A DNA stretch of 44,817 nucleotides. Source: Candidatus Falkowbacteria bacterium (GTDB lineage: Bacteria; Patescibacteriota; Patescibacteriia; Patescibacteriales; UBA12465). Positions 1,092 through 44,817 of the stretch are shown here, piece after piece; positions within the stretch are counted from its first letter, which is position 1; every line of letters starts with the position of its first letter. A program made the translations under genes and the position numbers. The stretch lies in NCBI GenBank assembly GCA_016432645.1, contig CP066698.1, forward strand, positions 86,245-131,061, written 5' to 3'. Below the pieces are notes generated by a model. That model was given only the letters and a program-made list of their open reading frames with translations, was not told the DNA's origin and ran no database searches.

Positions 1092-4000
1092 CTATTTATT
1101 TTCAACGCACCAATCTCTGGCGTTTTGAAACATTTTTAACCAAGGAGAGGCTTCCATATCGGCCCAATCTTTAGGCCAATAAGCCCATTGCCAGGGCAGG
1201 AAAGTTCTTTCAGGGTGAGGCATCATAATCAGATGCCGCCCGTCAGCACTGCAGAGTCCGGCAATTCCGTCTGGAGAGCCGTTCGGATTGAAGGGGTAAT
1301 CTTCGCGTTTAGCAAAACTACCATTATCCTTCACATAGCGAATCGGGATGCTCATTGAGGCCGCTGTTTTATTGTTAGGAAAGAAAGCTTTGCCTTCGCC
1401 ATGTGCTGACCAAACTCCGAGAGTTGAGCCCTCCATGTCTTGGAGCATCACTGCTTGACTTTCCATAATTTTGACCGTCAGGAAGTGGCTTTCAAATCTG
1501 CCAGAATCGTTGGCAATAAAGCGCGGTTGTTCTTCGTCCTTCAATTCCGGAAAAAGTAAACCGGTTAAAGCTAAAAATTGGCAGCCGTTGCAAATTCCGA
1601 GAGAGAGTGTATCAGGGCGTTTAAAGAAATCCTCAAACATCTGTTTCAGTCTCTCGTTGAATTTAACTGTTCCGGCCCAGCCTTTAGCGGAATCCAAAAC
1701 GTCAGCGTAACTGAAGCCGCCGACGAAAACAGCCATTTGAAAATCGTCCAAGTCAGCCGTTCCTTTCAATAAATCACTCATGGTAATATCAAAGACTTTA
1801 AATCCAGCCTGGTAAAAAGCGGAACTCATTTCTCGATCGCCATTGGAGCCTTCTTCGCGAATTATGGCGACTTCCGGTTTTTCAGCATGGAACAAAGCCT
1901 GGGTTGCTTTTGGTTTAAAAGATAAATCGTAGTTAGCGCCAGGGCGATAACAAATATTCATCTTTTTTTCTTTGGCTAAGCCCGGCAGTATTTGCAATTT
2001 CTCCAACTGATAGCTGGTTTCGTGCCATTGCTCTTTAAGATTTCCCAGTTTGTCGGAAAAAACAATTTCCGAATGATTTTTGGTGATGATTATTTCCCGC
2101 AGATGCAAGGAGCAGCCTAACTTTTGATAAGGCACAGAAGCTTCTTTTAAAACTTCAATTACTTCTTCCATATTATCGGACAAACATTCAATGACCCAGC
2201 CGGCCTCTTCGGCAAATAATTCGGCTGTTAAAGGCACCGTGGTGTCGTAGTTAATGTTTAATCCGCAATTTCCCGCGAAAGCCATTTCCAGAAGTGTGGT
2301 GATTAAGCCGCCCTTACTGATGTCGTGACAAGCAGAAATCAGCCCGTCTCTTACCAGTTCTTGAATGGCATTAAAACCAACAACTAAAGTTCTAGCATCA
2401 ATGTCCGGATAATTGTCTCCAACTTGTCCATAAACTTGTGCTAAAGCTGAACCGCCTAAGCGACGCTCACCATGAGCTAAATCTACTCTCAAGAGTGCAC
2501 TTTTCCCCGGATACTTCAAATCAGGAGTCACTTTTTGCCGTATATCGCCCATTGTTACATATCCCGATAAGACTAATTGGCTTGGAGATTTAACCAGTTC
2601 TGTTCGGCCTTCCGGATGTTGAATTTTGGTAACCATCGACAGGCTGTCTTTGCCGCCGTCAATGGCTATGCCAACTTTAACCATAAAATCGCGTAGGGCA
2701 GTAGCGGCATCGTAAAGACGCGCACCCTCGCCCGGCAATTTCGGTGCCCACATCCAGTTAGCTGACACTTTTAAATCGTGTAAGTCGCTGATAAGAGCCG
2801 GGGCCATATTAGTCAGCATTTCCGCCACCGTCATTCGGGCGGCTGCCGGTGTGTCGAGAATCATTTCCATGTGTTTCTCGCCGATAGCCGTTACCGCGCC
2901 GGTGTATTCATCGCAATCATCGGGAAAGTGGCTTTGAGCGACAACTCCAAAATCAGATACCGGAATTTGGACGGCGCCGCAACATTGTTGTTGGGCGATT
3001 AAGCCGGTTACGCTGCGGTCAACTTTCGCCGTTAAGTGGTCCTTAGAACCTACTGAAACCAAACCAAAAATTCTTTTGATTCCTTCCTCAAGGGAAAAAT
3101 CATTAGGAAGCTCCAGCGGCAGTAATTTACGTTCCAGGTGCTGGTCTCTAAAAGTTTTTTGCGGCAAGCCGCCTAAAACCTTACTTAAATCCAAGCGCAC
3201 CGGAATGCTGTCGTCGGCGCTGTCATAAACAACAAAATAACCGTCGTCGGTAACTTCGCCGAGAACTTCACAGTTCACTTTTTCACGTTTACAAATTCTT
3301 TGGAATTCTTCAATTCGTTCCGGACTGATAATAAAACCGTTGCGTTCCTGGAATTCGCAAATCCAAGTTTCAAGCACAGACAAAGTTGGGTCGCCCAAAG
3401 TAATCTTGCGGACATCAATCCGGCCGCCGTATTTTTCCACCAGTTCTTTGAGAACATTGGCCGGACCGCCGGCGCCTTGATCATGGACAATGACAATTGG
3501 ATTGTCGTCGCCCATTTCCACGCAGGCGCGAATAACGCGATTAACTTTCTGTCCCATTTCACCATCGCCACGTTGCACGGCGTTGAAATCCAAGTTTTCC
3601 GCTTGGTCGCCTTGGTTTAAAGAGGAGGCTGAGCCGCCGCCAAAACCGATGCGATAAGCCGGACCGCCGACCTGGACAATTAACATACCGGGTTCGGCCT
3701 CACCTTTCTCAATATGCTCATCATCCAGCATGCCAATACCGCCAGTAAATAAAATTGCTTTTAAATACTCTTGGCGTTCGCCGTCCGGGAGTTCAATCCC
3801 GACCGAAGCAGCTGTTCCAGTAATCACCGGTTCACCGAATTTATTACCATAATCGGAAGCACCATTGGAGCCTTCAATCATAATTTTCAACGGACTAGCA
3901 ATGTTCTTCGGATAAATCCAACCTTCTTTTTCCCAGGGCAGTTTATAGCCTGGAATATAAAGATTGCCGACAAAATAGCCAGTTGTCCCCGCAATGGTTA

Positions 4001-4916
4001 AGCCGCCGCGTCCAGTTGCCTGGATATCACGGATACGCCCGCCGGTTCCGGTTTCCGCTCCCGCATAAGGCGAGATGGTTGTCGGGAAGTTGTGCGTTTC
4101 GGCAGTAAAAATTAGATTGTAAAGCCGCTCCTGCAATTCCATAACAGACCGTTGTCCTGGATGTTTTGGCAGTAAAGTGTTCACATGATAACCTTCAATT
4201 CCGGAAGAATTATCACGGAAAGCTAAAATTGATCCTTGAGGATTAGACGTTAAAGTCGATTTTACAATCTCCATTAAAGTTTCGGACATTTCCACGCCGT
4301 CAATAATTTGCTGGCCTTTGAAATAGCCGTGCCGGCAATGTTCCGAGTTAGCGTTATTGAGATCAAGAATCTCAACGATAGTCGGGTCGCGATGTTCTAG
4401 CTCTACGAAGTAGTGATAATAGAAATCACGATCGGCTGCATCCATGGAAAGTCCAGGGATTTTTAACAAGGAATTCGGTCCTTCGGCGGTCATCGGAATC
4501 GTATAAACTGCTTCTGGCTGGCGTCCCGTGTCAAAACTTTTTAAAGGTTCCGGATAAATCATTTGGGTCATGCGATCAAATAATTTTGGTTTTGCCGCCT
4601 CGGCTTCTTCCTTAGTGCTGAATTGAGTTCTCTTGGATTTTTCAATTTTGGTAATTTTTGTCAGCCCGCAGGCATGGCAAATGGATAAAGCATTAGTGTT
4701 CCAGGGTGTGGCCACAGTTAAGAGCGGGCCTACCTCCACAACATTAAGTTCATCAGAGGGTTTCAGCCGAAAATTTTGCGGCTCGAAAGTTTCCGCTAAG
4801 AGCCAGGTCAAAATTTCCAGTTCCTTGGGGTTTAATTCTTCGCTTACTTCAACATTGAAGCAATGTTCAAAGCAGTCGTTGTCCCAGCGATAAAAGTTCA
4901 TCACTTTCTTTTTCAT
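1092..4916 (-). CDS. purL: Phosphoribosylformylglycinamidine synthase, large single-chain type with fused glutaminase
   Basis: 1274 aa. NSEHCRH, TAETHNFP, ETGTGGRIRD, HDQGAGG and GGKDSLSM motifs. Glutaminase GGFSYAD, GICNGCQ (catalytic Cys) and MPHPER. Confidence 0.97.
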   Translation of the reverse strand: MKKKVMNFYRWDNDCFEHCFNVEVSEELNPKELEILTWLLAETFEPQNFRLKPSDELNVVEVGPLLTVATPWNTNALSICHACGLTKITKIEKSKRTQFSTKEEAEAAKPKLFDRMTQMIYPEPLKSFDTGRQPEAVYTIPMTAEGPNSLLKIPGLSMDAADRDFYYHYFVELEHRDPTIVEILDLNNANSEHCRHGYFKGQQIIDGVEMSETLMEIVKSTLTSNPQGSILAFRDNSSGIEGYHVNTLLPKHPGQRSVMELQERLYNLIFTAETHNFPTTISPYAGAETGTGGRIRDIQATGRGGLTIAGTTGYFVGNLYIPGYKLPWEKEGWIYPKNIASPLKIMIEGSNGASDYGNKFGEPVITGTAASVGIELPDGERQEYLKAILFTGGIGMLDDEHIEKGEAEPGMLIVQVGGPAYRIGFGGGSASSLNQGDQAENLDFNAVQRGDGEMGQKVNRVIRACVEMGDDNPIVIVHDQGAGGPANVLKELVEKYGGRIDVRKITLGDPTLSVLETWICEFQERNGFIISPERIEEFQRICKREKVNCEVLGEVTDDGYFVVYDSADDSIPVRLDLSKVLGGLPQKTFRDQHLERKLLPLELPNDFSLEEGIKRIFGLVSVGSKDHLTAKVDRSVTGLIAQQQCCGAVQIPVSDFGVVAQSHFPDDCDEYTGAVTAIGEKHMEMILDTPAAARMTVAEMLTNMAPALISDLHDLKVSANWMWAPKLPGEGARLYDAATALRDFMVKVGIAIDGGKDSLSMVTKIQHPEGRTELVKSPSQLVLSGYVTMGDIRQKVTPDLKYPGKSALLRVDLAHGERRLGGSALAQVYGQVGDNYPDIDARTLVVGFNAIQELVRDGLISACHDISKGGLITTLLEMAFAGNCGLNINYDTTVPLTAELFAEEAGWVIECLSDNMEEVIEVLKEASVPYQKLGCSLHLREIIITKNHSEIVFSDKLGNLKEQWHETSYQLEKLQILPGLAKEKKMNICYRPGANYDLSFKPKATQALFHAEKPEVAIIREEGSNGDREMSSAFYQAGFKVFDITMSDLLKGTADLDDFQMAVFVGGFSYADVLDSAKGWAGTVKFNERLKQMFEDFFKRPDTLSLGICNGCQFLALTGLLFPELKDEEQPRFIANDSGRFESHFLTVKIMESQAVMLQDMEGSTLGVWSAHGEGKAFFPNNKTAASMSIPIRYVKDNGSFAKREDYPFNPNGSPDGIAGLCSADGRHLIMMPHPERTFLPWQWAYWPKDWADMEASPWLKMFQNARDWCVENK

Positions 4917-5015
4917 CTTGCTGATTTTTTGGTTAATACTATAAATTATTTATTTGTTAATGTTCTTTTAAAACACAATAATCTCTTGGTGTTTCCGCCA
5001 ATTAATTATCACCAC

Positions 5016-5044
5016 AAATTAACAGATAACGCCTATAAAGTCAA
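5016..5044 (-). promoter_or_regulatory. Sigma70-type promoter for purL
   Basis: Minus strand TTGACT (5044-5039), 17-nt spacer, TG-n-TAATTT (5021-5016). Confidence 0.5.
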
Positions 5045-5113
5045 ATAAAAATTCTTTCCAAGAATAGCGGGCTTAAATAGCTAATAAAGTGCCAAATTAT
5101 CGTTTATCCCTTC

Positions 5114-5142
5114 TTGACTTATATTTTATATTTTGTTAAATT
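5114..5142 (+). promoter_or_regulatory. Sigma70-type promoter for the str operon, divergent from purL
   Basis: TTGACT (5114-5119), 17-nt spacer, TG-n-TAAATT (5137-5142). Confidence 0.55.
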
Positions 5143-5261
5143 AAAAGCGTGTAAAAAATAACACATCCTGAATACTCAGGATTCTTTTAATATTTAAAAT
5201 TTAGTAATTAGCAAAGTTCGCGCCGGGCGACTGTCAGGCAGGCGAATAATAACTGAAAATT

Positions 5262-5687
5262 ATGCCCACAATCAACCAATTGGTTAAGCAGGGAAGAAAG
5301 AAGACCAAGGGTCGCAAGAATGCGATTGCTCTTCATTTTGGTCTTGATTCTTTGCATCGCAAAAAGAAAGAAACTGCCAAAGGCGCTCCTTTTAAACAGG
5401 GCGTTTGTTTGAAGGTTACTACCACCACTCCAAAGAAACCGAACTCCGCGTTACGTAAAATCGCTCGTGTTCGCTTATCCAACGGCATGGAAGTAACTGC
5501 TTATATTCCAGGTATGGGGCATAACTTGCAGGAACACTCCATTGTTTTAGTTAAAGGCGGAAAAACCAAGGATCTTCCGGGTGTCCGCTATAAAGTTGTC
5601 CGCGGCGTTTATGATGCTTCCGGTGTTGAAGCCAGACGCAAGAGCCGCAGTTCTTACGGCGCTAAAAAACCAAAAGCCGCCAAGTAA
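5262..5687 (+). CDS. rpsL: 30S ribosomal protein S12
   Basis: [32 protein letters not shown]. Confidence 0.98.
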
Positions 5688-34532: not shown

Positions 34533-34672
34533 ATTAGTAAATATTTCTGGTTGAAATATTTTGTTTTTGTAGGAGCGGATTAATATTTTTATATTGAATC
34601 CGTGAGCCACAATTTAATATTCCCGGGTAGCGCAGCGGTAGCGCAGTTGGCTGTGAACACATTTTTATTTTT

Positions 34673-34681
34673 TGCTATAAT
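34673..34681 (+). promoter_or_regulatory. Intron-internal extended -10 element, putative leaderless promoter of the HNH ORF
   Basis: TG-C-TATAAT ends at 34681, with exactly 6 nt before ATG 34688. No recognisable -35. Confidence 0.5.
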
Positions 34682-34687
34682 ATTATT

Positions 34688-34996
34688 ATGACAAAAGATA
34701 AAAGAAAATATGCCGATCGTGCCGAATATTTAAAGGCAGCGGTTGATAGGAGGCGAAAGCAAGTCCGTCAATTAGCCATTGAATATAAGGGCGGTGAATG
34801 TTCCATTTGCGGTTATAGCAAGTGTTTTAAAGCGCTTGAATTTCATCATCTTGATTCTTCTAAGAAAGACTTTGGCATCTCTGCCAAAGGATATACTAGA
34901 AGTTGGGAGGTGATAAAAAAAGAGCTCGATAAATGCATCTTGGTATGCGCAAATTGTCATCGTGAAATTCACGAAGGTATCACGCAGCCCCTTTGA
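34688..34996 (+). CDS. Intron-encoded HNH endonuclease, zinc-finger type; putative homing endonuclease
   Basis: 102 aa with CSICGY..C..ALEFHH...CILVCANCHREIH. Lies wholly inside the intron, between the 5' splice site and the IGS. Confidence 0.88.
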   Translation: MTKDKRKYADRAEYLKAAVDRRRKQVRQLAIEYKGGECSICGYSKCFKALEFHHLDSSKKDFGISAKGYTRSWEVIKKELDKCILVCANCHREIHEGITQPL

Positions 34997-35275
34997 GTAA
35001 TCAAAGGGTGAAAACGAGGTGAACTGTCTGGAAGCCTAAGTCGCAAGATATGGTAATCAGCAGCCAAGCCCTGACTTGTCAGGGAAGGTTCAGAGACTAT
35101 CCCGAAAGGGAGTAGGCCCGTCAAGGAGACGGCCCGAAGCGCCTCGCATCCGTAATTTGCGGATGATGATATAGTCCACTCCACTCAGAAATTAGTGGGT
35201 AAGTGTAACCAATTGGTCGTCGGTTCGAATCCGACCCCGGGAGCAAAGCGATCCGTTTCGGATCAACTCTTATAG

Positions 35276-35309
35276 AAAAACAAACGAGATTGCTCTCGTT
35301 TGTTTTTTT
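35276..35309 (+). terminator. Intrinsic terminator of the pre-tRNA
   Basis: Perfect 14-bp inverted repeat AAAAACAAACGAGA-TTGC-TCTCGTTTGTTTTT followed by further Ts. Confidence 0.75.
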
Positions 35310-35331
35310 ATTAACTATATTAAATAAATTT

Positions 35332-36168
35332 ATGCCAGTCCCTACATATGATGAAATGTATAATCCATTACTTAAAGCAATGCGCGCTTTGGGTGGTTCT
35401 AGTTCAAATTCAGAATTAGATGATAAAGTCGCTGAAATCTTGGGGTTATCAGAGGAGGAAATAAATGCAATTCACGTTGGCAACAGAACGCGATTAAGTT
35501 ACAGAATGGCTTGGGCAAGAAATTATCTAAAAAGATATGGTCTTTTGGAAAATTCAGCGAGAGGTGTCTGGGCACTAACTTTAAAAGGTAAGAAAACGGA
35601 CACGGTTGATAAAATTGAGGTAAATAAATATGTAAAAGGATTAGATAAAAAATTAGAAACTGTCGAGGAAAAAGTTGAAGAAGGAAAAGTGCTGGGTGAT
35701 GAAGAAGTGCTATGGCAAGATGAACTTATAGAGGAATTATTAAAAATGGATCCATCTGCGTTTGAAAGATTATGCCAGAGAATGCTTAGGGAAAGTGGAT
35801 TTATTCAAGTAGAGGTTACTGGAAGATCTGGAGATGGAGGAATAGATGGTAATGGCATTTTAAAAGTAAATGGGTTTATAAGTTTTTTTGTTACTTTTCA
35901 ATGCAAACGATATAAGGGAAGTGTTCCGCCTAAAGAGATTAGAGATTTTAGAGGCGCTTCAATTGGAAGGTCGGAAAAGGGTTTATTTATTACAACAGGA
36001 ACGTTTACTCGTGACGCGAAAGCAGAGGCCGTGAGAGAAGGGGCTCCAAGAATAGATTTAGTTGATGGAGAGATGTTAGCTGAAAAATTAAAAGAATTAA
36101 GGCTTGGCATTGATGTTGAGATGGAAGAAGCAGTGACGATTGATAAAAAGTGGTTTGAAAATTTTTAA
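35332..36168 (+). CDS. mrr: Mrr family type IV restriction endonuclease
   Basis: Mrr N-terminal winged helix (PTYDEMYNPLL..WARNYLKRYGLLE..RGVWALT). Catalytic domain FERLC..GDGGIDG..QCKRY..GLFITTGTF. ATG 35332, because TTG 35290 lies inside the terminator. Confidence 0.92.
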   Translation: MPVPTYDEMYNPLLKAMRALGGSSSNSELDDKVAEILGLSEEEINAIHVGNRTRLSYRMAWARNYLKRYGLLENSARGVWALTLKGKKTDTVDKIEVNKYVKGLDKKLETVEEKVEEGKVLGDEEVLWQDELIEELLKMDPSAFERLCQRMLRESGFIQVEVTGRSGDGGIDGNGILKVNGFISFFVTFQCKRYKGSVPPKEIRDFRGASIGRSEKGLFITTGTFTRDAKAEAVREGAPRIDLVDGEMLAEKLKELRLGIDVEMEEAVTIDKKWFENF

Positions 36169-36178
36169 TAGATAAGAT

Positions 36179-37837
36179 ATGACAAAATCTAAAAATGAAA
36201 ATTTCTCTTTTGAGATTTCTTTAAGTGTGTTAGACCATTTAGGAAGAAATCTTTATAGAAGTTTTGTTACCGTGTTAGGTGAAGCTATTTCAAATTCTTG
36301 GGATGCAGATGCTCGCAATGTTAGAATTTATATTGATAAATCTAAAAATAGCTTTGTTATTATTGATGACGGAGATGGAATGACAAGTGACGATTTTCAA
36401 AATAAATTTTTAAGAATTGGTTATTCAAAAAGAAAAAATGGTAGTTCAATGTCAAAAAATCAGCGCCCATTTATAGGAAGAAAAGGTATCGGGAAACTGG
36501 CCCTGCTTTCTTGTGCAGATGAAATAACAATAGCTTCTAAAGTAAAAGGTGGAAGTTATGTAGGGGGCGTAATAAATAATAAAGGACTTGATAAAGCAAT
36601 CACAGATGACAGGGCGCCACAGGAATATGAGCTTGGTGTTTTAGATGTTGTTAAATTGAAAAAATTTACAAATAAACATAAAAAGGGAACAGTTTTATAT
36701 TTTAAAGGATTAAAAGATGAAATAAAAAATAACATTGATTATTTAAAAAAGATTGTTGCATTATATTTTCGTTTTTCTTTACTTGATAGTACGTTTAATA
36801 TATTCATAAATGATGAAAAAATAACTTATAAACATCTAAATGATTTATCTAAAAAAACAGAATTTTTATGGGAAACAGATGGAAATAAAGACCCTTTTGT
36901 ACGACAAGGGTTAAAATTTTTAAAAGAAGAGAAAAGAATAAAAATCGGAAGTGGAATTAATGGTTTTATTGCATCAGTGGATAAACCAAGAGATTTAAAT
37001 GTGTTATCAACTGGTGAGCGTGTTAGTATTGATTTATTTGTTAATGGAAGGCTAAGAGAAAAAGACATATTAAAACATATTCCTACGGCACGTATAGCAG
37101 AGAGTTATCTTTATGGCCAAATTCATTTTGATAACTTGGATGATAATGACAAAGATAGATTTACAAGCAGTCGAGAGAATGTTGTAGCGGATGATCCAAA
37201 ATATAAGGAATTTTTAGTAGAGTTCAAAAAAACAATTGAGGGGGTTATTAAAGACTGGGACACTTGGAGGATAAAAAACAGAAAAGATGGTAATCCAGAA
37301 AATGAAGATATTTTAAAACGTGATAGAAAATCTTTAGAATTGTACAATGTTGTATCCGGAGAATATATTCCGCCAAAGGGTTCGGCTAAGAAAAGTTTAA
37401 TAGATGAGTGGGTTGATAGTTTAGCTAATGATGCAAAATATAATTTTTCTTCATATGCAGAGTGCTTTATATCCGAAAATCTTATTAGGAAGTACATTGG
37501 AAATAAAAAAATAAAAATGACTGAAGAAGCAGAAAGGGAAATAAAAAAATGGAAAGATATTGAAAAACAGAATAAAGGGGCCGGCAATATAAGTATTAAA
37601 ATTAGAAATAGTGAAACTGGGTTAGGTTATTTATCAATGACAGATTTATCTGCTTTAGTAGATAAAAAGGGAAGAGATAAGCTTAAAGAAGCCTCGCTTT
37701 TTAGAGATGCGACAGAGTATAAGCCAATAAGAGATGCGTTGGCGCATACGGCATTATTAACTGATGCGGCTAAAAGCAAATTGACATCCGTTTATAACAA
37801 CATTAAAGAAAGAGTCAATGTGTTAATTTCAAAATAA
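36179..37837 (+). CDS. GHKL (MORC/MutL-like) ATPase with putative C-terminal HEPN domain
   Basis: E35-x3-N39 (EAISNSWDAD), DDGDGM, GRKGIGK. S5-like region LFVNGRL/SYLYGQIHFD. C-terminal ENLIRKYI..YLSMTDL..R518-DALA-H523. Confidence 0.8.
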   Translation: MTKSKNENFSFEISLSVLDHLGRNLYRSFVTVLGEAISNSWDADARNVRIYIDKSKNSFVIIDDGDGMTSDDFQNKFLRIGYSKRKNGSSMSKNQRPFIGRKGIGKLALLSCADEITIASKVKGGSYVGGVINNKGLDKAITDDRAPQEYELGVLDVVKLKKFTNKHKKGTVLYFKGLKDEIKNNIDYLKKIVALYFRFSLLDSTFNIFINDEKITYKHLNDLSKKTEFLWETDGNKDPFVRQGLKFLKEEKRIKIGSGINGFIASVDKPRDLNVLSTGERVSIDLFVNGRLREKDILKHIPTARIAESYLYGQIHFDNLDDNDKDRFTSSRENVVADDPKYKEFLVEFKKTIEGVIKDWDTWRIKNRKDGNPENEDILKRDRKSLELYNVVSGEYIPPKGSAKKSLIDEWVDSLANDAKYNFSSYAECFISENLIRKYIGNKKIKMTEEAEREIKKWKDIEKQNKGAGNISIKIRNSETGLGYLSMTDLSALVDKKGRDKLKEASLFRDATEYKPIRDALAHTALLTDAAKSKLTSVYNNIKERVNVLISK

Positions 37838-37897: not shown

Positions 37898-38965
37898 TTA
37901 AATAAATTGTTGCAGATGATTATTTATACTCTTTGCGATAACTTGTCCAAGTTTAACTGGTACAGCATTACCAATAAATTTGGCAACATCACCAACTTTC
38001 ATATCTTTTTTGGGGTCAACAAATTTGTATGTTTTAGGGAATGTTTGAAATAAAGCAGCTTCTCTTAGGGATATTGCTCGATCTTGTTCTGGATGGCCAT
38101 ATCTTCCATTTCCAATGCCTATACATTGGGTTGTCATGGTAGGAGCTGGCTCATCCCATCTCATACGGCCGTATACCGTTCCTTTGTAAGTTTTACCACT
38201 ATCTTTTTTGTGACATTCCAAAACTAATTCTTCCGACCAATCGTTTGTGCCGCCGCCATTATGTTTAGTTGCCTTAATTCTTTTTTTGTTTAATGGATTA
38301 AGTTTTCTTGATCGATGGTAAATATCATTTTTTGAAATCTCGCCATCTTTAATCTTTGGTAATTTGGATATAACGTCTCTAACAGTTTTTTTCTTTTTTG
38401 GATCTTCCGTGGTTTTATCTATCAATTTTATTTCACCAAGTAACGAGGCGAGTAAAACAAGTCTCATCCTTTTTTGGGGCACCCCATAATCCGATGTGTC
38501 AATAACATCAAAAGATACTTTATATCCTTGTGATTTTAGATTATCAATAAATTCCTGAAAGACAGGATATTTTTTTAATCCTCTAACATTTTCCATGGAT
38601 ACTATTTCTGGACGGATTTCGTTGATTAGTTTAGCAAACTTTTCTATGGGAGAAAAATCTTTTTCAGTATCTTTTTTTAAATTTAATCTTGAATACGGCT
38701 GACAAGGAGCGCAACCAACAAGTACTTTGTATTTACAGTTATCGTATTTCTCTAAAAGTTCATCCTTTGATACTTCTTCAATAGGTTTTTCTATAAAAAT
38801 AGCATCATTGTTTGCCTCATAGCCATATTTACATGATCCGTCGTTATCAATGCCCGCAACAACGTTAAAGCCTTCTTTTTGGAATCCATGAGTAAGGCCG
38901 CCAATACCACAAAAAAGATCAATGACCTTAATATCATTCTTACCATTTTTAGTTATTTTAGGCAT
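37898..38965 (-). CDS. DNA (cytosine-5) methyltransferase
   Basis: Motif I DLFCGIGG, motif IV GCAPCQ, motif VI ENV, PQKRMR, RAISLREAALFQTFP, IGNAVP. Confidence 0.95.
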   Translation of the reverse strand: MPKITKNGKNDIKVIDLFCGIGGLTHGFQKEGFNVVAGIDNDGSCKYGYEANNDAIFIEKPIEEVSKDELLEKYDNCKYKVLVGCAPCQPYSRLNLKKDTEKDFSPIEKFAKLINEIRPEIVSMENVRGLKKYPVFQEFIDNLKSQGYKVSFDVIDTSDYGVPQKRMRLVLLASLLGEIKLIDKTTEDPKKKKTVRDVISKLPKIKDGEISKNDIYHRSRKLNPLNKKRIKATKHNGGGTNDWSEELVLECHKKDSGKTYKGTVYGRMRWDEPAPTMTTQCIGIGNGRYGHPEQDRAISLREAALFQTFPKTYKFVDPKKDMKVGDVAKFIGNAVPVKLGQVIAKSINNHLQQFI

Positions 38966-38989: not shown

Positions 38990-39018
38990 ATTATAAGATA
39001 AAGTTTCACTATTATCAA
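38990..39018 (-). promoter_or_regulatory. Sigma70 promoter for the methyltransferase
   Basis: Minus strand TTGATA (39018-39013), 17-nt spacer, TATAAT (38995-38990). Confidence 0.6.
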
Positions 39019-39462: not shown

Positions 39463-41007
39463 ATGGCAAAGGATAATAAAACAGAATCATTTGAAAAGAC
39501 TCTTTTTAAAGCTGCCGATAAGTTGCGAAAGAATATGGATGCAGCTGAATACAAGCATATTGTGCTTGGTTTGATTTTTTTAAAGTATATTTCTGATTCA
39601 TTTGAAGAGTTATATAGCAAGATAAAAGCTGGTGGCGCTGATTTTGCCGGTGCGAATCCTGAGGATGCTGACGAATACCGCGCAGAAAATGTTTTTTTTG
39701 TGCCACAAATTGCCCGTTGGTCTTATCTTCATTCTCGATCAAAACTCCCGTCCATTGGGAAGGACTTGGATGATGCCATGGAGGCTATCGAAAAAGAAAA
39801 TCCGACGCTTAAAGGTATTTTGCCGAAAGTATATGCTCGTCCAAATTTAGACAAGGCTTCGCTTGGTGGGCTTATTGATTTGGTTGGTAATATTGCACTT
39901 GGCACCGAAGCAGCGAAGAGCAAAGATTTACTTGGGAGAGTATATGAATATTTTCTTGGTGAATTTGCTAATGCAGAAGGTAAGAAGGGCGGCCAGTTCT
40001 ACACACCAAAATCAATTGTTCGCATCATGGTAGAGATGATTGAGCCATACAAGGGTAGGGTATATGACCCGGCCTGTGGTAGTGGCGGAATGTTTATCAT
40101 GAGTGAAAAATTTATTAAAGAGCATCGCGGAAATGTTGAGGACATTTCTATTTATGGCCAAGAAAGCAATCAAACAACTTATCGCTTATGTCGGATGAAC
40201 CTCGCTATTCGCGGTATTGACGGCTCTCAAGTTAAATGGAACACGGAAGGATCATTTTTAAATGATACTCATAAAGACCTTAAAGCCGATTTTGTTTTAG
40301 CAAATCCCCCCTTTAACGATAGTGATTGGTCTGGTCAATTACTTCAAAATGACCCACGTTGGCAGTACGGAATGCCACCGGCTTCAAATGCTAACTACGC
40401 GTGGCTTCAGCACATGATCTACCATCTATCGCCACATGGAGTGATGGCATGCGTTCTTGCTAACGGTTCGCTATCGAGCCAGACTAATAATGAAGGAGAT
40501 ATCAGAAAATCACTTATTGAACATGATTTAGTTGATTGTATTGTCGCACTCCCTAAACAGCTTTTTTATAACACTGGCATTCCGGCATGCATTTGGTTTA
40601 TTTCTCGTAAGCGTACTGGCAACGGTGGTCGTAAGCGTACTGGCGAAATCCTCTTTATTGATGCGAGCGAAGTTGGCCACATGGCAGACAAAACGCACCG
40701 TGAATTTTCTGAAGACGACATGTCAAAAGTTGCTGGCGCATATCATGAATGGCGAAAGAAAGATGGTAAGTACGAAGATGTCAAAGGTTTTTGTAAGTCA
40801 GCCGGTATAGACGAAATTACTAAGCATAACTTTGTTCTCACTCCGGGGCGATATGTGGGTGTAAAAGATGAGGTAGATGATGGTATTCCATTTGCCGAGA
40901 AAATCACTGGATTGACATCAAAACTAGCAGAGCAAATGGCGGAAGAGAAGAAACTGGATGAAGAAATTAAAAAACAACTCAAGAATATTGGATTTAACTT
41001 GGAATAA
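39463..41007 (+). CDS. hsdM: Type I restriction-modification methyltransferase subunit M
   Basis: [43 protein letters not shown]. Confidence 0.97.
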
Positions 41008-41009
41008 TT

Positions 41010-42224
41010 ATGACAGATCAAACTTCTACAATTCCAAAAGGATGGAAAATGTCGACACTGGGAGAAATTGTTATTTTACGACAAGGTAGATACATTCCCG
41101 ATGATATTTTATCTATAACAAAAGATACTAAGAGAATATTCCCGGTTTTCGGCGGCGGCGGATTAAGGGGTTATACAGACTTTTTTGAATATGAAAAAAG
41201 ACAGCCAATTATTACTTGTCGTGGTTCTGGCTGCGGTTTTATTCAAAGAACAGATGTAAAAGCATCAATTACAAATTCTTCTATTGCTTTTGAGGTAAAC
41301 GAAGATTATTTAGATATTGGCTTTGTTTATTATTGGGCGCTGGGAAGAGATTTTTCTGATGTTATAACGGGTTCAGCTCAACCTCAAATTACAATAGGTG
41401 CGTTATCAACTAAACTAATCCTTATTCCCACTCTGCCAGAACAACGCGCGATTGCTGCGGTGTTGTCGTCTTTAGATGATAAAATTGAGCTTTTGCGTGA
41501 GCAGAATAAAACTCTTGAAGCCATTGCACAGACGATTTTTAAAGAATGGTTTGTGAATTTCAATTTCCCCGGCACCACTGGCAAAATGATCGACTCTGAA
41601 CTCGGCCAAATTCCGGAAGGGTGGAAGGTTGGGAGGTTGGGAGATGAGTTTGATATTACAATCGGTCGCACTCCGCCACGATTAGAAACAGAATGGTTCT
41701 CAGATAAGCCGACTGGCAAAAAGTGGATTTCGATAAAAGATATAGGAAATAGTGAGATGTATATTTCAAATACCTCTGAATATTTAACAGATGAAGCGAT
41801 AGAAAAATTTAATATTCCACTAATTCCTGAAAATACCACTATTTTGAGTTTTAAAATGACAGTTGGAAAACTAGCGATTACAACAGAAGAGATGCTCTCA
41901 AATGAAGCAATCGCGCATTTAAAGATAAAAAATAATTCAAATTTTTCTACCGAGTTTATTTACTTATTTTTGAAAGGCTTGGATTTCAATAGTTTGGGGA
42001 GCACATCATCTATTGTGACAGCTATAAACTCAACAATGATAAAAGCTCTTGGAATTCTAGTTCCTGAAGATCAAATAATTAGGCAGTTCAATGCGATTAT
42101 TCAACCAATTTTTGCAAAACTAAAAAATAATAATTCCCAAATCCAATTTCTATCCACTCTTCGTGATACCCTTTTGTCAAAATTGATGAATGGAGAAGTT
42201 AGAGTTGAAAAATTCAATGATTAG
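41010..42224 (+). CDS. hsdS: Type I restriction-modification specificity subunit S
   Basis: Two TRDs with repeated IP(K/E)GWK. Central LPEQRAIAAVLSSLDDKIE and terminal RDTLLSKLMNGE. Confidence 0.95.
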   Translation: MTDQTSTIPKGWKMSTLGEIVILRQGRYIPDDILSITKDTKRIFPVFGGGGLRGYTDFFEYEKRQPIITCRGSGCGFIQRTDVKASITNSSIAFEVNEDYLDIGFVYYWALGRDFSDVITGSAQPQITIGALSTKLILIPTLPEQRAIAAVLSSLDDKIELLREQNKTLEAIAQTIFKEWFVNFNFPGTTGKMIDSELGQIPEGWKVGRLGDEFDITIGRTPPRLETEWFSDKPTGKKWISIKDIGNSEMYISNTSEYLTDEAIEKFNIPLIPENTTILSFKMTVGKLAITTEEMLSNEAIAHLKIKNNSNFSTEFIYLFLKGLDFNSLGSTSSIVTAINSTMIKALGILVPEDQIIRQFNAIIQPIFAKLKNNNSQIQFLSTLRDTLLSKLMNGEVRVEKFND

Positions 42225-42226
42225 TT

Positions 42227-43120
42227 ATGCAGAAACTAAAAGAGGTTATAACGGGTAAGAGTAGGTGGAACGGATTATTATCCTATATTTCTTTGGTGGA
42301 AGAAAACAAAACTTCAAATCCAAACGCCTCTTTAGATGGTGCAAAAAGTATTTTAGAGACTATATCAAAAACTATTTTATCGGATAAAAATATATCATAT
42401 AGATCGGATGAATCTGTCGGAAATTTAGTTAAGCTAGCATTTTCTTCTCTGCCGATTTTTACAAAATTTTCTGAGATAGAGGCTGAAAAATCTAAGGCTA
42501 TTTTAAATGCTTTTGCAACGATATCAAATTCTGTTGGAATGTTTAGGAACGATCATGGTTTTTTTGCTCACGGTCAAGATTTGCAGTCTGAAAAGTTTGA
42601 TCGTTATTTGTTGGATCTGGCTATTTCATCGTCCGATCTTCTTGCGAGTTTTTTAATAATTTCTCATGCAGAAGATCTTAAGGACAGAAAACGTGTTTAT
42701 TATGAGGAAAATGATGAATTTAATAGATACATTGACGAAACGAGTGAAGAATACCCAATTGTTAAGGGGATACAACTATCTCCGAGTCGCGCCTTATTTA
42801 GTGATCAAGACGCCTACAAAGAAGAATTGCTAATTTTTATAAATGAAAAAATTAATCTAATTGAGCGACTAGAAAAATCTGAAAATTTTATTTCTACTAG
42901 ATCAATCTGCTCCAGTTTGATACCACTACGCGATTATTTAACGGAAAACGAATTAAAAAGAGTTGCTCGTTCGGGAATTAATAATCCGCATATATATAGA
43001 ATTTTGGGTCATGGGTATACAAGGGGCTTGTTCACATGGGTGATAAAAGAAAAGTCTTCATCATTAAGTGCTGAAGAACTTAGCGGGCTAGAAATAGCGT
43101 TTACTAAAAAATTATATTAA
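42227..43120 (+). CDS. Abortive-infection family (Abi_C/HEPN-like) protein
   Basis: AKSILETISKTIL and FRNDHGFFAHG resemble Abi_C. Lies between hsdS and hsdR with 1-2 nt gaps. Confidence 0.65.
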   Translation: MQKLKEVITGKSRWNGLLSYISLVEENKTSNPNASLDGAKSILETISKTILSDKNISYRSDESVGNLVKLAFSSLPIFTKFSEIEAEKSKAILNAFATISNSVGMFRNDHGFFAHGQDLQSEKFDRYLLDLAISSSDLLASFLIISHAEDLKDRKRVYYEENDEFNRYIDETSEEYPIVKGIQLSPSRALFSDQDAYKEELLIFINEKINLIERLEKSENFISTRSICSSLIPLRDYLTENELKRVARSGINNPHIYRILGHGYTRGLFTWVIKEKSSSLSAEELSGLEIAFTKKLY

Positions 43121-43121
43121 T

Positions 43122-44817
43122 ATGACTAAAATATTTGAATCAACAATTGAAGAATTCGTTATTAAGCTTTTACAAAATCAGGGCTGGGAGTATTTATCAC
43201 CGGAAGACCAAGAAGTAGAGCGTACGGATTTGGGGCAGGTGGTTTTGAGAAATCGTTTGGAAAAAGCGATTAATACGCTTAACCCTGTCATTGCCGAAGA
43301 AGCCAAGGATCAAGCGCTTCGCATGGTCTTGAATTTGCCTAGCCAAAACTTAATGGATAACAATGAGTCTTTTCACCGCTTGCTTACCGAAGGCATAGAA
43401 GTGGAAGTAATGGGAGTTGACGGTATAAAGGGCGATAAAGTTCTATTAATTGATTTTGATAACGTTGAGAACAATGAATTTATAGTTTGTAATCAATTTA
43501 CGGTTACGGAAAATAATATCACTAAGCGTCCAGATGTAGTCTTGTTTGTTAATGGTTTGCCGTTAGTAGTGATTGAACTTAAGAATCCGGTAGATGAAAA
43601 TGCCACTGTCGCTAAAGCATTTACTCAATTACAAAATTATAAGAATGCGATTACGTCACTTTTTTTCTATAACGCTGTGCTTGTAGCTTCTGATGGGCTT
43701 GATGCCAAGATGGGTACAATATCTTCTGATATTTCTCGTTTCCTGGCCTGGAAATCAAGTGATGGATACAAGGAGGATAAGGCGACAACTCCTCAGATTG
43801 AAACTCTTGCTAAGGGCATGCTTTCAAAGCAAGTACTTCTAGATCTTGTCGCACACTTTATCGTTTTCGAAAAAACAAAAAAAGAAGATGTAAAGACTGG
43901 CTTAGCAACCGTTATTACCATTAAGAAAATAGCGGCGTATCATCAGTATTTTGCAGTTAATAAAGCAATTGAAAAAACATTAGTGGCATCTGATGAAGAC
44001 GGAGATAGGAAGGCTGGTGTCGTTTGGCACACCCAGGGAAGCGGAAAATCTCTTTCAATGGTTTTTTATGCCGGAAAAACAGTTTTAAAATTAAACAATC
44101 CGACAATAGTTGTTATCACTGATAGAAATGATCTTGATGAACAACTTTTTGACACCTTCGCCGGATGCAAACAACTCCTAAGACAAGATCCTGTAAAGGC
44201 TGAAAATCGTGATAACTTAAAAGAGCTGTTAAAGGTGGCTGGTGGTGGAATCATTTTTTCGACTATTCAAAAGTTTTTTCCTGAAGATGGCGCAGTTAAC
44301 TTTGATCTATTGTCTGATAGAAAAAATATCATTGTGGTTGCAGATGAGGCCCATCGTAGCCAGTATGGATTCGGAGCTAAAACAACCGAAAAGGATGGTG
44401 AAATATTTACTAAATATGGCTTTGCAAAATATTTGCGTGATGCTTTACCATCAGCATCCTTTATTGGATTTACTGGAACGCCAATTGAAAAAGAAGATGT
44501 TAACACTAAAGCGGTATTTGGCGAATATGTTGATGTCTATGATATTGCACAAGCAGTTGAAGATGGCGCTACTGTACGGATATATTACGAATCACGATTG
44601 GCTAAGGTTCATCTTAAACCAGAAGAGACGGCTAAATTAGACGAAGAGGTTGAATCAATTACCGAGGGAGAAGAAAATAACGCAAAAGATAAGGCAAAAG
44701 CAAAATGGGCACAACTGGAAGCAATTGTTGGTCACAGAGATAGATTGGCGGTAGTGGCGGCTGATGTAGTTGATCATTTTGAAAAACGCCGTGAAGCATT
44801 TGAAGGCAAGGGTATGA
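43122..44817 (+). CDS. hsdR: Type I restriction endonuclease subunit R, 3'-truncated by the window end
   Basis: Open frame from ATG 43122 to the end. RPDVVLFVNGLPLVVIELKN, WHTQGSGKS, VVITDRNDLDEQL, ADEAHRSQY, FTGTP. Absent from the ORF track, presumably because it has no stop codon. Confidence 0.96.
   Translation, partial: MTKIFESTIEEFVIKLLQNQGWEYLSPEDQEVERTDLGQVVLRNRLEKAINTLNPVIAEEAKDQALRMVLNLPSQNLMDNNESFHRLLTEGIEVEVMGVDGIKGDKVLLIDFDNVENNEFIVCNQFTVTENNITKRPDVVLFVNGLPLVVIELKNPVDENATVAKAFTQLQNYKNAITSLFFYNAVLVASDGLDAKMGTISSDISRFLAWKSSDGYKEDKATTPQIETLAKGMLSKQVLLDLVAHFIVFEKTKKEDVKTGLATVITIKKIAAYHQYFAVNKAIEKTLVASDEDGDRKAGVVWHTQGSGKSLSMVFYAGKTVLKLNNPTIVVITDRNDLDEQLFDTFAGCKQLLRQDPVKAENRDNLKELLKVAGGGIIFSTIQKFFPEDGAVNFDLLSDRKNIIVVADEAHRSQYGFGAKTTEKDGEIFTKYGFAKYLRDALPSASFIGFTGTPIEKEDVNTKAVFGEYVDVYDIAQAVEDGATVRIYYESRLAKVHLKPEETAKLDEEVESITEGEENNAKDKAKAKWAQLEAIVGHRDRLAVVAADVVDHFEKRREAFEGKGM

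Follow-up and report, generated by a model that had tools for sequence, protein, structure and literature searches.

A GHKL ATPase with a predicted Swt1-type HEPN tail, paired with a C5 cytosine methyltransferase, in a Candidatus Falkowbacteria genome

Introduction

What might a GHKL-type ATPase do when its C-terminal tail resembles an RNase rather than a DNase domain and its neighbour is a cytosine DNA methyltransferase (MTase)? This question was raised by gene X, which lies in a 44,817-nucleotide (nt) stretch of a Candidatus Falkowbacteria bacterium genome (GenBank assembly GCA_016432645.1, contig CP066698.1, positions 86,245 to 131,061; hereafter the window, from whose first nucleotide all positions are counted). 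A sequence-only reading of this DNA had proposed that X joins a MORC-like ATPase to a HEPN domain of the Swt1/Abi type, and that it may form an uncharacterised three-gene defence module with the upstream mrr gene and a convergent C5 MTase. Here, we examined the domains of X, the conservation of its tail and its neighbourhood in other genomes. The tail is very probably a Swt1/Abi2-type HEPN domain, as judged from profile alignments and a predicted structure, and the partner found beside X across species is the C5 MTase, not Mrr.

Gene X and its ATPase module

The features of gene X are as follows.

36179..37837, forward strand: gene X, paraMORC-type GHKL and S5 ATPase with a C-terminal HEPN-like domain (open reading frame of 552 residues; translation)
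36203..36748, forward strand: GHKL (Bergerat-fold) ATPase domain, residues ~9-190, with motifs I-IV (Pfam, motif positions)
36749..37294, forward strand: S5/transducer-like middle domain, residues ~191-372, with FVNGRLRE at 287-294 (NF050001, MutL model, BLASTP)
37304..37423, forward strand: pair of conserved helices (residues 376-415) that separates the ATPase module from the HEPN core (AlphaFold2 model, conservation)
37424..37834, forward strand: predicted HEPN core (Swt1/Abi2-like), residues 416-552 (AlphaFold2 model, hhalign, Foldseek)
37475..37489, forward strand: E433-N434-L-I-R437, the EN.[IV]R motif of HEPN helix 1 (invariant in 103 of 103 homologues)
37730..37747, forward strand: R518-D-A-L-A-H523, Rx4H motif where helix 3 ends (conservation)

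Residues 1-372 form a paraMORC-type ATPase, and what marks such proteins was found together: motifs I-IV are intact, an S5/transducer domain stands behind the GHKL domain, and the neighbourhood across homologous loci is of the DCM/Vsr kind. The GHKL motifs comprise E35/N39/D42 within GEAISNSWDAD, DDGDGM at 63-68, GRKGIGKLA at 100-108 and GT at 170-171, and E35, N39, D42, D63, K102 and K106 are invariant in an alignment of divergent homologues. HATPase_c_3 is the sole Pfam domain in X (residues 29-124, E 2e-21). The profile NF050001, which represents the BbrUII/HgiDII restriction enzymes, aligned residues 9-372 to its positions 1-369 out of 659 with 299.6 bits, the NCBIfam MutL model aligned residues 32-312, and the PADLOC REase_II models matched residues 8-378 alone (E 1e-38). 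The motif positions, the Pfam match and the NF050001 and MutL alignments thus bear out the intact GHKL motifs and the S5-like middle region read from the sequence. No DNase domain, whether PD-(D/E)xK, HNH or of another kind, was detected in X by the Pfam scan, in agreement with the same reading. Membership of X in the BbrUII/HgiDII family itself was rejected, as its score lies below the family cut-off of 550 bits and the C-terminal module of that family is not matched.

The C-terminal domain

Conservation in the tail is strict. Y426, E433, N434, R437, L490 and H523 are present in all 103 homologues, down to 26% identity, and R518 is replaced only once, by Q, in the copy at locus L064. The residue that follows R518 is D in 85 of these proteins and N in the other 18, which gives the pattern R[ND]xxxH. 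An Rx4H motif arises by chance in the last 177 residues of approximately 10% of composition-matched shuffles; therefore, the bare motif is weak evidence by itself, and it is its conservation that carries weight. The three motifs that had been picked out from the sequence lie exactly where they were placed (ENLIRKYI at 433-440, YLSMTDLSAL at 484-493 and RDALAH at 518-523), and the conservation expected of Rx4H if the HEPN proposal was correct was found (R in 102/103, H in 103/103). R383, L388, V392 and W411, in the two helices of residues 376-415, are conserved as well; these helices are possibly a linker or a lid.

Profile comparisons point to the Swt1-like branch of HEPN domains. When the family members were scanned singly, 3 of 103 matched PF18731 (HEPN_Swt1), and only weakly, with a best E-value of 0.005. 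Alignment of the X family with four gathered PF18731 members in hhalign gave a score of 36.8 (P 2.8e-5, 115-118 columns), and alignment with the subset of three prokaryotic members gave a score of 43.1 (P 2.1e-6, probability 89%); taken together, the two comparisons covered 115-120 columns. By comparison, the reversed template scored 12.9, 30 column shuffles scored 9.2-15.9, and Swt1 and Ymh, both of them accepted as HEPN families, scored only 20.0 against each other. The alignment placed SENLIR on FENTVR, LGYLSMTDLSAL on LIDYTEFGDLVSI and IRDALAHT on SRNVLMHG. All three motifs, EN.[IV]R, Y..[FM]..L and R[ND]xxxH, were in register with PF18731, and the first of them is in line with FENTVR and LENSVR of Swt1-like HEPNs.

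A similar picture emerged from structure prediction. An earlier AlphaFold2 model of the C-terminal fragment, built from 22 close homologues, was unusable (mean predicted local distance difference test, pLDDT, 57), and a model built with the 103 diverse sequences reached a pLDDT of 93.4 and a predicted template modelling (TM) score of 0.84, with an all-alpha fold. Its N-terminal helices span residues 380-396 and 405-414. They are followed by helix 1 (416-443), which bears E433, N434 and R437, helix 2 (449-468), a 38-residue insert (469-506), helix 3 (507-522), with R518 in its last turn and H523 just past it, and helix 4 (529-551). This order, h1-h2-insert-h3(Rx4H)-h4, fits the HEPN definition of Anantharaman et al. 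(2013; PMC3710099). In a Foldseek search of the Protein Data Bank (PDB), five of the six top matches were HEPN proteins; two were HepT toxins (7bxo_F and 5yep_B) and the others were Csm6 (6tug and 5yjc chains A and B), with a probability of 0.63 and a TM score of 0.55 by target length for 7bxo_F.

Several results pull the other way and temper this assignment. The fold match of the model to HEPN was judged on secondary-structure order only. In the same Foldseek search, no match reached E<=1e-3, and the HEPN matches had E-values of 0.9-2 and TM scores of 0.36-0.43 by query length. Furthermore, residues 369-552 (184 residues) have no Pfam match at E-values up to 10. Foldseek against the viral structures of BFVD gave nothing meaningful for the domain, and a profile search of PDB sequences with it gave a chance ferritin match only. 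On balance, the aligned profiles, the modelled helix order and the motifs in register make it very probable that the C-terminal domain of X is a Swt1/Abi2-type HEPN, as had been proposed from its motifs. A Ymh identity was also considered and rejected, given that neither PF09509 nor TIGR02391 matched the tail and hhalign against 10 Ymh (PF09509) domains taken from related genomes gave P 0.11.

A variation of the domain was observed in the divergent relatives P0242, P0243 and P0244, which carry a Cys-rich CxxC...CxxC insert between HEPN helices 1 and 2 (alignment columns ~570-620; CPYCKG, CAFCKG and CSYCKS are examples). This insert is probably a zinc ribbon, which recalls the Cxorf38 branch of Swt1-like HEPNs, where a Zn-ribbon lies in the HEPN domain.

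The partner methyltransferase and homologous loci

Downstream of X, the window holds the following features.

37898..38965, reverse strand: cognate C5 cytosine DNA methyltransferase, 355 residues (Pfam DNA_methylase, E 5e-63)
38990..39018, reverse strand: promoter-like site TTGATA-17-TATAAT, 11/12, 5' of the methyltransferase gene (consensus scan only)

The MTase gene is convergent with X, the two being 60 nt apart. All catalytic motifs were recognised by eye in its translation, and the protein matches the PADLOC DrmMII model (4e-80). To place this arrangement, we used 80 loci kept from the 322 obtained in a one-genome-per-species scan. A relative of the window MTase lies directly upstream of X on the same strand in 69 of the 80, with 41-66% identity over the full length; it lies downstream of X in three loci and elsewhere in the locus in two. 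In three homologous loci that were inspected, the C5 MTase directly upstream overlaps X by 8-11 nt, and vsr sometimes follows downstream. Across the set, vsr is found directly downstream of X on the same strand in 40 loci, Vsr is found nowhere in the locus in 27, and many loci consist of the MTase (M) and X alone. In most other genomes, M and X form one operon with translational coupling, and vsr often comes next; the convergent arrangement is shared with the window by loci L047 and L012 only. These counts uphold the link of X to a C5 MTase. Conservation of the partner MTases extends over the full protein and takes in the target-recognition region, which lies between motifs VIII and IX; M and X thus appear to travel as one unit, which probably has one specificity.

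An additional GHKL (HATPase_c_3) gene, different from X, stands between the MTase and X in two loci (L029, 2419-3171, and L056, 3080-4966). The extra gene in L056 matches the N-terminal module of NF050001 with 215.6 bits.

Distribution and mobility of the family

The family is large and scattered. More than 4600 relatives of X, from many phyla and with 55-66% identity, were found at E<=1e-3, and the best 120 share 61-66% identity over the full length; Gaiellales, Patescibacteria, Phycisphaerae, Bacteroidota and ANME-1 are named among these 120. The 80 kept loci come from many bacterial phyla and from DPANN archaea, and a copy with 48% identity is carried by a conjugative Paracoccus plasmid. 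A phmmer search of 1.84 billion representative sequences with the C-terminal domain retrieved 186 proteins, all with the same architecture or fragments of it; the full-length ones have ~550-590 residues, with the domain at the C-terminus. The same search gave no link of the domain to other families. The tail of X thus occurs solely in the GHKL-HEPN architecture.

The GC content is 30.1% in X and 33.9% in the MTase, compared with 40.5% in the window and 43.6% in dnaG-rpoD, and X was not found in 60 relatives of this ~0.98-Mb single-contig genome. X is foreign and was horizontally acquired. Its region was found in DNA metagenome runs only, with no RNA-seq run holding it; one groundwater run contained the sequence fully, and a second groundwater run and a landfill run contained it partly. 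At locus L047 (1711-3408), from Polynucleobacter, the pair of X and convergent MTase adjoins a large serine recombinase and hsdM, which suggests that this pair is carried on a mobile element.

Mrr and other genes of the defence island

The gene upstream of X was assigned as follows.

35333..36168, forward strand: Mrr-type (type IV) restriction enzyme, Mrr_N and Mrr_cat (Pfam, PADLOC mREase_IV)

The likely start of mrr is the ATG at 35333 (MPVPTYDEMYNPLL), which yields a 278-residue Mrr, and not the TTG at 35290, since the latter lies inside a terminator hairpin. The 10-nt gap between mrr and X was confirmed, and no terminator was found between the two genes; from this gap, co-transcription is likely. 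In the window, mrr occupies the position that is usual for the MTase upstream of X. Nevertheless, a tblastn search (E 1e-5) detected Mrr relatives in none of the 80 homologous X loci. A Mrr-like partner was also sought at the convergent-MTase locus L047 and rejected, as the upstream gene there is unrelated. Mrr probably stands outside the module, as a type IV enzyme in its own right that lies in the same island as X and possibly on the same transcript. Of the gene-neighbourhood co-occurrence that the sequence-only reading had expected, the part concerning the C5 MTase therefore stood (directly upstream in 69/80) and the part concerning Mrr did not (0/80), and with the latter falls the proposed module of three genes.

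The low-GC defence island begins right after an intron-split tRNA gene (34621-35250). The anticodon loop of this gene is split by a group I intron (Rfam RF00028, 34969-35198, 84.7 bits, E 3.5e-21), and the intron carries an HNH-like open reading frame (34688-34996). The gene was missed by ARAGORN, and joining of the exons restores a tRNA; its anticodon is ambiguous, as Thr-UGU and Asn-GUU both fit the U at the 5' splice site and the terminal G. Behind the tRNA gene, at 35279-35333, lies a strong hairpin terminator (aaacaaacgaga...tctcgtttgttttttt), within which the listed TTG start of mrr falls.

On the other side of the MTase, a type I restriction-modification (R-M) operon occupies 39463-44816, with hsdM at 39463-41007, hsdS at 41010-42224 and hsdR from 43122, cut by the end of the window. 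Between hsdS and hsdR, in the slot known for PrrC, lies an Abi_C/HEPN-family gene (42227-43120; Pfam Abi_C, E 1e-7). Therefore, the island holds two different HEPN-type proteins.

Relation to known systems

Proteins of this general design have been described before. Orlowski and Bujnicki (2008; PMC2441816) listed GHKL 'restriction enzymes' whose tails had no assignment, apart from noting that one of these tails was Ymh, and Iyer et al. (2008; PMC2292703) defined the paraMORCs, which lie in R-M operons beside DCM and Vsr and bear family-specific C-terminal extensions. Ymh was subsequently recognised as a HEPN domain, and paraMORC-Ymh proteins in R-M contexts were proposed to be analogues of PrrC and RloC (Anantharaman et al. 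2013; PMC3710099); ATPase-HEPN fusions inside methylation-based systems were a theme already noted in that year. The novelty attributed to the module in the sequence-only reading was thus overstated. As its predicted domains indicate, X is a further example of the paraMORC-HEPN fusions predicted in 2013 in R-M contexts. In a 2026 preprint, paraMORC function was still a proposal, and our literature search found no experimental work on paraMORC-HEPN proteins or NmeAI.

The paraMORC-Ymh proteins (PF09509, R.NmeAIP type) share the overall design and size of X. One of them, a 565-residue protein that ends in an R-N-x-x-A-H HEPN (PF09509, E 1e-20), is encoded in a genome of the same order (locus L087, 1474-3171, reverse strand). 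It aligns to residues 16-360 of X with 26% identity (BLASTP, E 4e-21) and matches positions 2-401 of NF050001, so both HEPN flavours of the GHKL and S5 ATPase occur in this bacterial group. X differs from it in that the tail matches the Swt1/Abi2 clade and the conserved context is a minimal M-X(-Vsr) operon without a separate restriction enzyme.

In the BbrUII/HgiDII enzymes (NF050001; SalI isoschizomers), the N-terminal 370 residues are homologous to X, and a C5 MTase gene likewise lies upstream and overlaps. A true member from Halobaculum, behind an overlapping C5 MTase, scored 800.8 bits over positions 1-659. In their C-terminal module of ~290 residues, a D...(D/E)xK-like pattern can be seen by eye; X has the HEPN-like domain in place of this module. 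Because the BbrUII/HgiDII and paraMORC-Ymh proteins share the N-terminal module with X, one ATPase module is found joined to at least three tails, that of X being the Swt1-like HEPN. Measured against classical type II R-M systems, X has a cognate MTase beside it and no recognisable DNA endonuclease domain.

The theme of an ATPase joined to a HEPN recurs among the Swt1-like/Abi2 HEPNs of PF18731, which include bacterial AAA+ (DUF499)-HEPN proteins in R-M-type operons; unlike in those fusions, the ATPase of X is GHKL, not AAA+. PrrC and RloC combine a nucleotide-hydrolysing sensor with a latent RNase, are tied to R-M or DNA status, and act in abortive infection. Their ABC/Rad50-like ATPase is unrelated to the GHKL ATPase of X, and the RNase domains differ too. 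PrrC relies on a complete type I R-M enzyme; the only such partner of X is a methylase.

X was also compared with class 2 DISARM (drmA, drmB, drmC, drmE and drmMII). It follows drmA-drmB-drmC in four of the 80 loci, compared with 69 with the plain M-X arrangement. No PADLOC Drm model matched X, and drmA, drmB and drmC were not found in the scanned part of the window (30-45 kb). The DISARM-linked copies lie at L039 (~3667-5316), L042 (1572-3224), L064 (5001-6638) and L074 (5001-6635), where the genes beside X match DrmA (E-values down to 0), DrmB (1e-80) and DrmC (3e-91). The L064 copy, the sole homologue with R518Q, has vsr and a C5 MTase of another kind behind it.

Proposed mechanism and alternative explanations

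We propose, at about an even chance of being correct, that X and its convergent C5 MTase form a horizontally acquired R-M-like module in which an ATP-driven clamp spares methylated self DNA and otherwise switches on an RNase. The steps are drawn by analogy with MutL/MORC clamps and with PrrC/RloC. X would dimerise via its HEPN domain, and its ATPase heads would sample, or close on, DNA as MutL or MORC do. Sites methylated by the partner would be ignored. Unmethylated cognate DNA, be it phage or plasmid DNA or, once the module has been lost, the host chromosome, would induce an ATP-dependent change in X that exposes or assembles a composite Rx4H site. The HEPN domain would then cut RNA and stop growth, with abortive infection and addiction as the outcome. 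HEPN RNases use metal-independent chemistry that depends on a 2'-OH; because of this requirement, cleavage of DNA by the HEPN domain of X is disfavoured.

Other observations count against this proposal. The true BbrUII/HgiDII relatives of X are DNA-cutting enzymes, four of the 80 loci place X inside DISARM operons, which act on DNA, and the M-X operon is rearranged in the window, where regulation may differ from that of the common form. The first two of these also lend themselves to the main rival explanation, that X is a DNA restriction subunit, either with a C-terminal module that binds or cleaves DNA or as a clamp that recruits Vsr, DrmC or Mrr. X takes the place of R in an M-R-(V) operon, its N-terminal module is that of BbrUII/HgiDII and is matched by the REase_II models, it occurs within drmABC operons, and nuclease genes are common neighbours (Vsr in 40/80, Mrr in the window). 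Yet no DNase fold was found in X by Pfam, the invariant residues are the HEPN-type set whose chemistry needs a 2'-OH, and no single nuclease partner is conserved, as 27 loci lack Vsr, none has Mrr, and many hold M and X alone. We therefore regard a DNA restriction subunit as unlikely, while giving it more weight than any other alternative. The idea that Mrr, X and the C5 MTase make up a single module, with X as the sensor and Mrr, the HEPN domain or both as executors, draws on the 10-nt gap without a detected terminator and on the position of the three genes in one low-GC island behind the tRNA gene. The logic of Mrr-type enzymes, which cut modified DNA, is the reverse of that of a system protected by its methylase; moreover, none of the 80 loci, which represent different species, has a Mrr relative, type IV enzymes that stand alone usually combine Mrr_N with Mrr_cat, and the upstream gene at the convergent locus L047 is unrelated. 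Such a trio is very improbable.

Two further explanations deny the tail an RNase role. X could be a MutL-like accessory to very-short-patch repair by Vsr at partner-methylated sites, its C-terminal domain serving for dimerisation only. E. coli MutL stimulates Vsr, and the order M-X-Vsr is found in 40 loci; a parallel with mismatch and short-patch repair was also pointed out by Iyer et al. However, half of the loci have no adjacent vsr, a mere dimerisation domain would not be expected to keep the R, H, E and N of a HEPN motif set strictly invariant, and the sporadic distribution driven by horizontal transfer, the location in an island and the linkage to DISARM are typical of defence genes, all of which makes a repair accessory improbable. 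It is, in our estimate, slightly less probable still that the HEPN-like domain is catalytically silent and binds a ligand or RNA, with X regulating or sensing for other systems of the island, such as the type I R-M operon with its Abi_C/HEPN gene 1.6 kb away. Some HEPNs, those of eukaryotic Swt1 and sacsin among them, are considered non-catalytic, but the catalytic-type residues of X are invariant and it is with the C5 MTase, not with a type I system, that its pairing is conserved.

Implications

For the window, the present analysis corrects the boundaries of the module, which comprises the methylase and X, with Mrr apart, and it raises the tail of X from a motif guess to a supported assignment to the Swt1-type HEPNs. 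More broadly, and tentatively, at somewhat less than an even chance, the X family may constitute an R-M system that reads self and non-self through 5-methylcytosine on DNA and executes on RNA, with no DNA nuclease. If so, abortive-infection defence and addiction would arise from a MutL/MORC-like clamp that switches on a Swt1-type HEPN RNase, and the occasional docking of X onto DISARM, Vsr or, in the window, Mrr would add a second line at the RNA level to systems that act at the DNA level. A common gene labelled 'ATP-binding protein' or 'DNA mismatch repair protein' would then be the effector of unrecognised methylation-guarded modules, and many 'orphan' C5 methylases would not be orphans. The family would also offer a simple bacterial model of how MORC-type clamps couple the state of DNA to an output.

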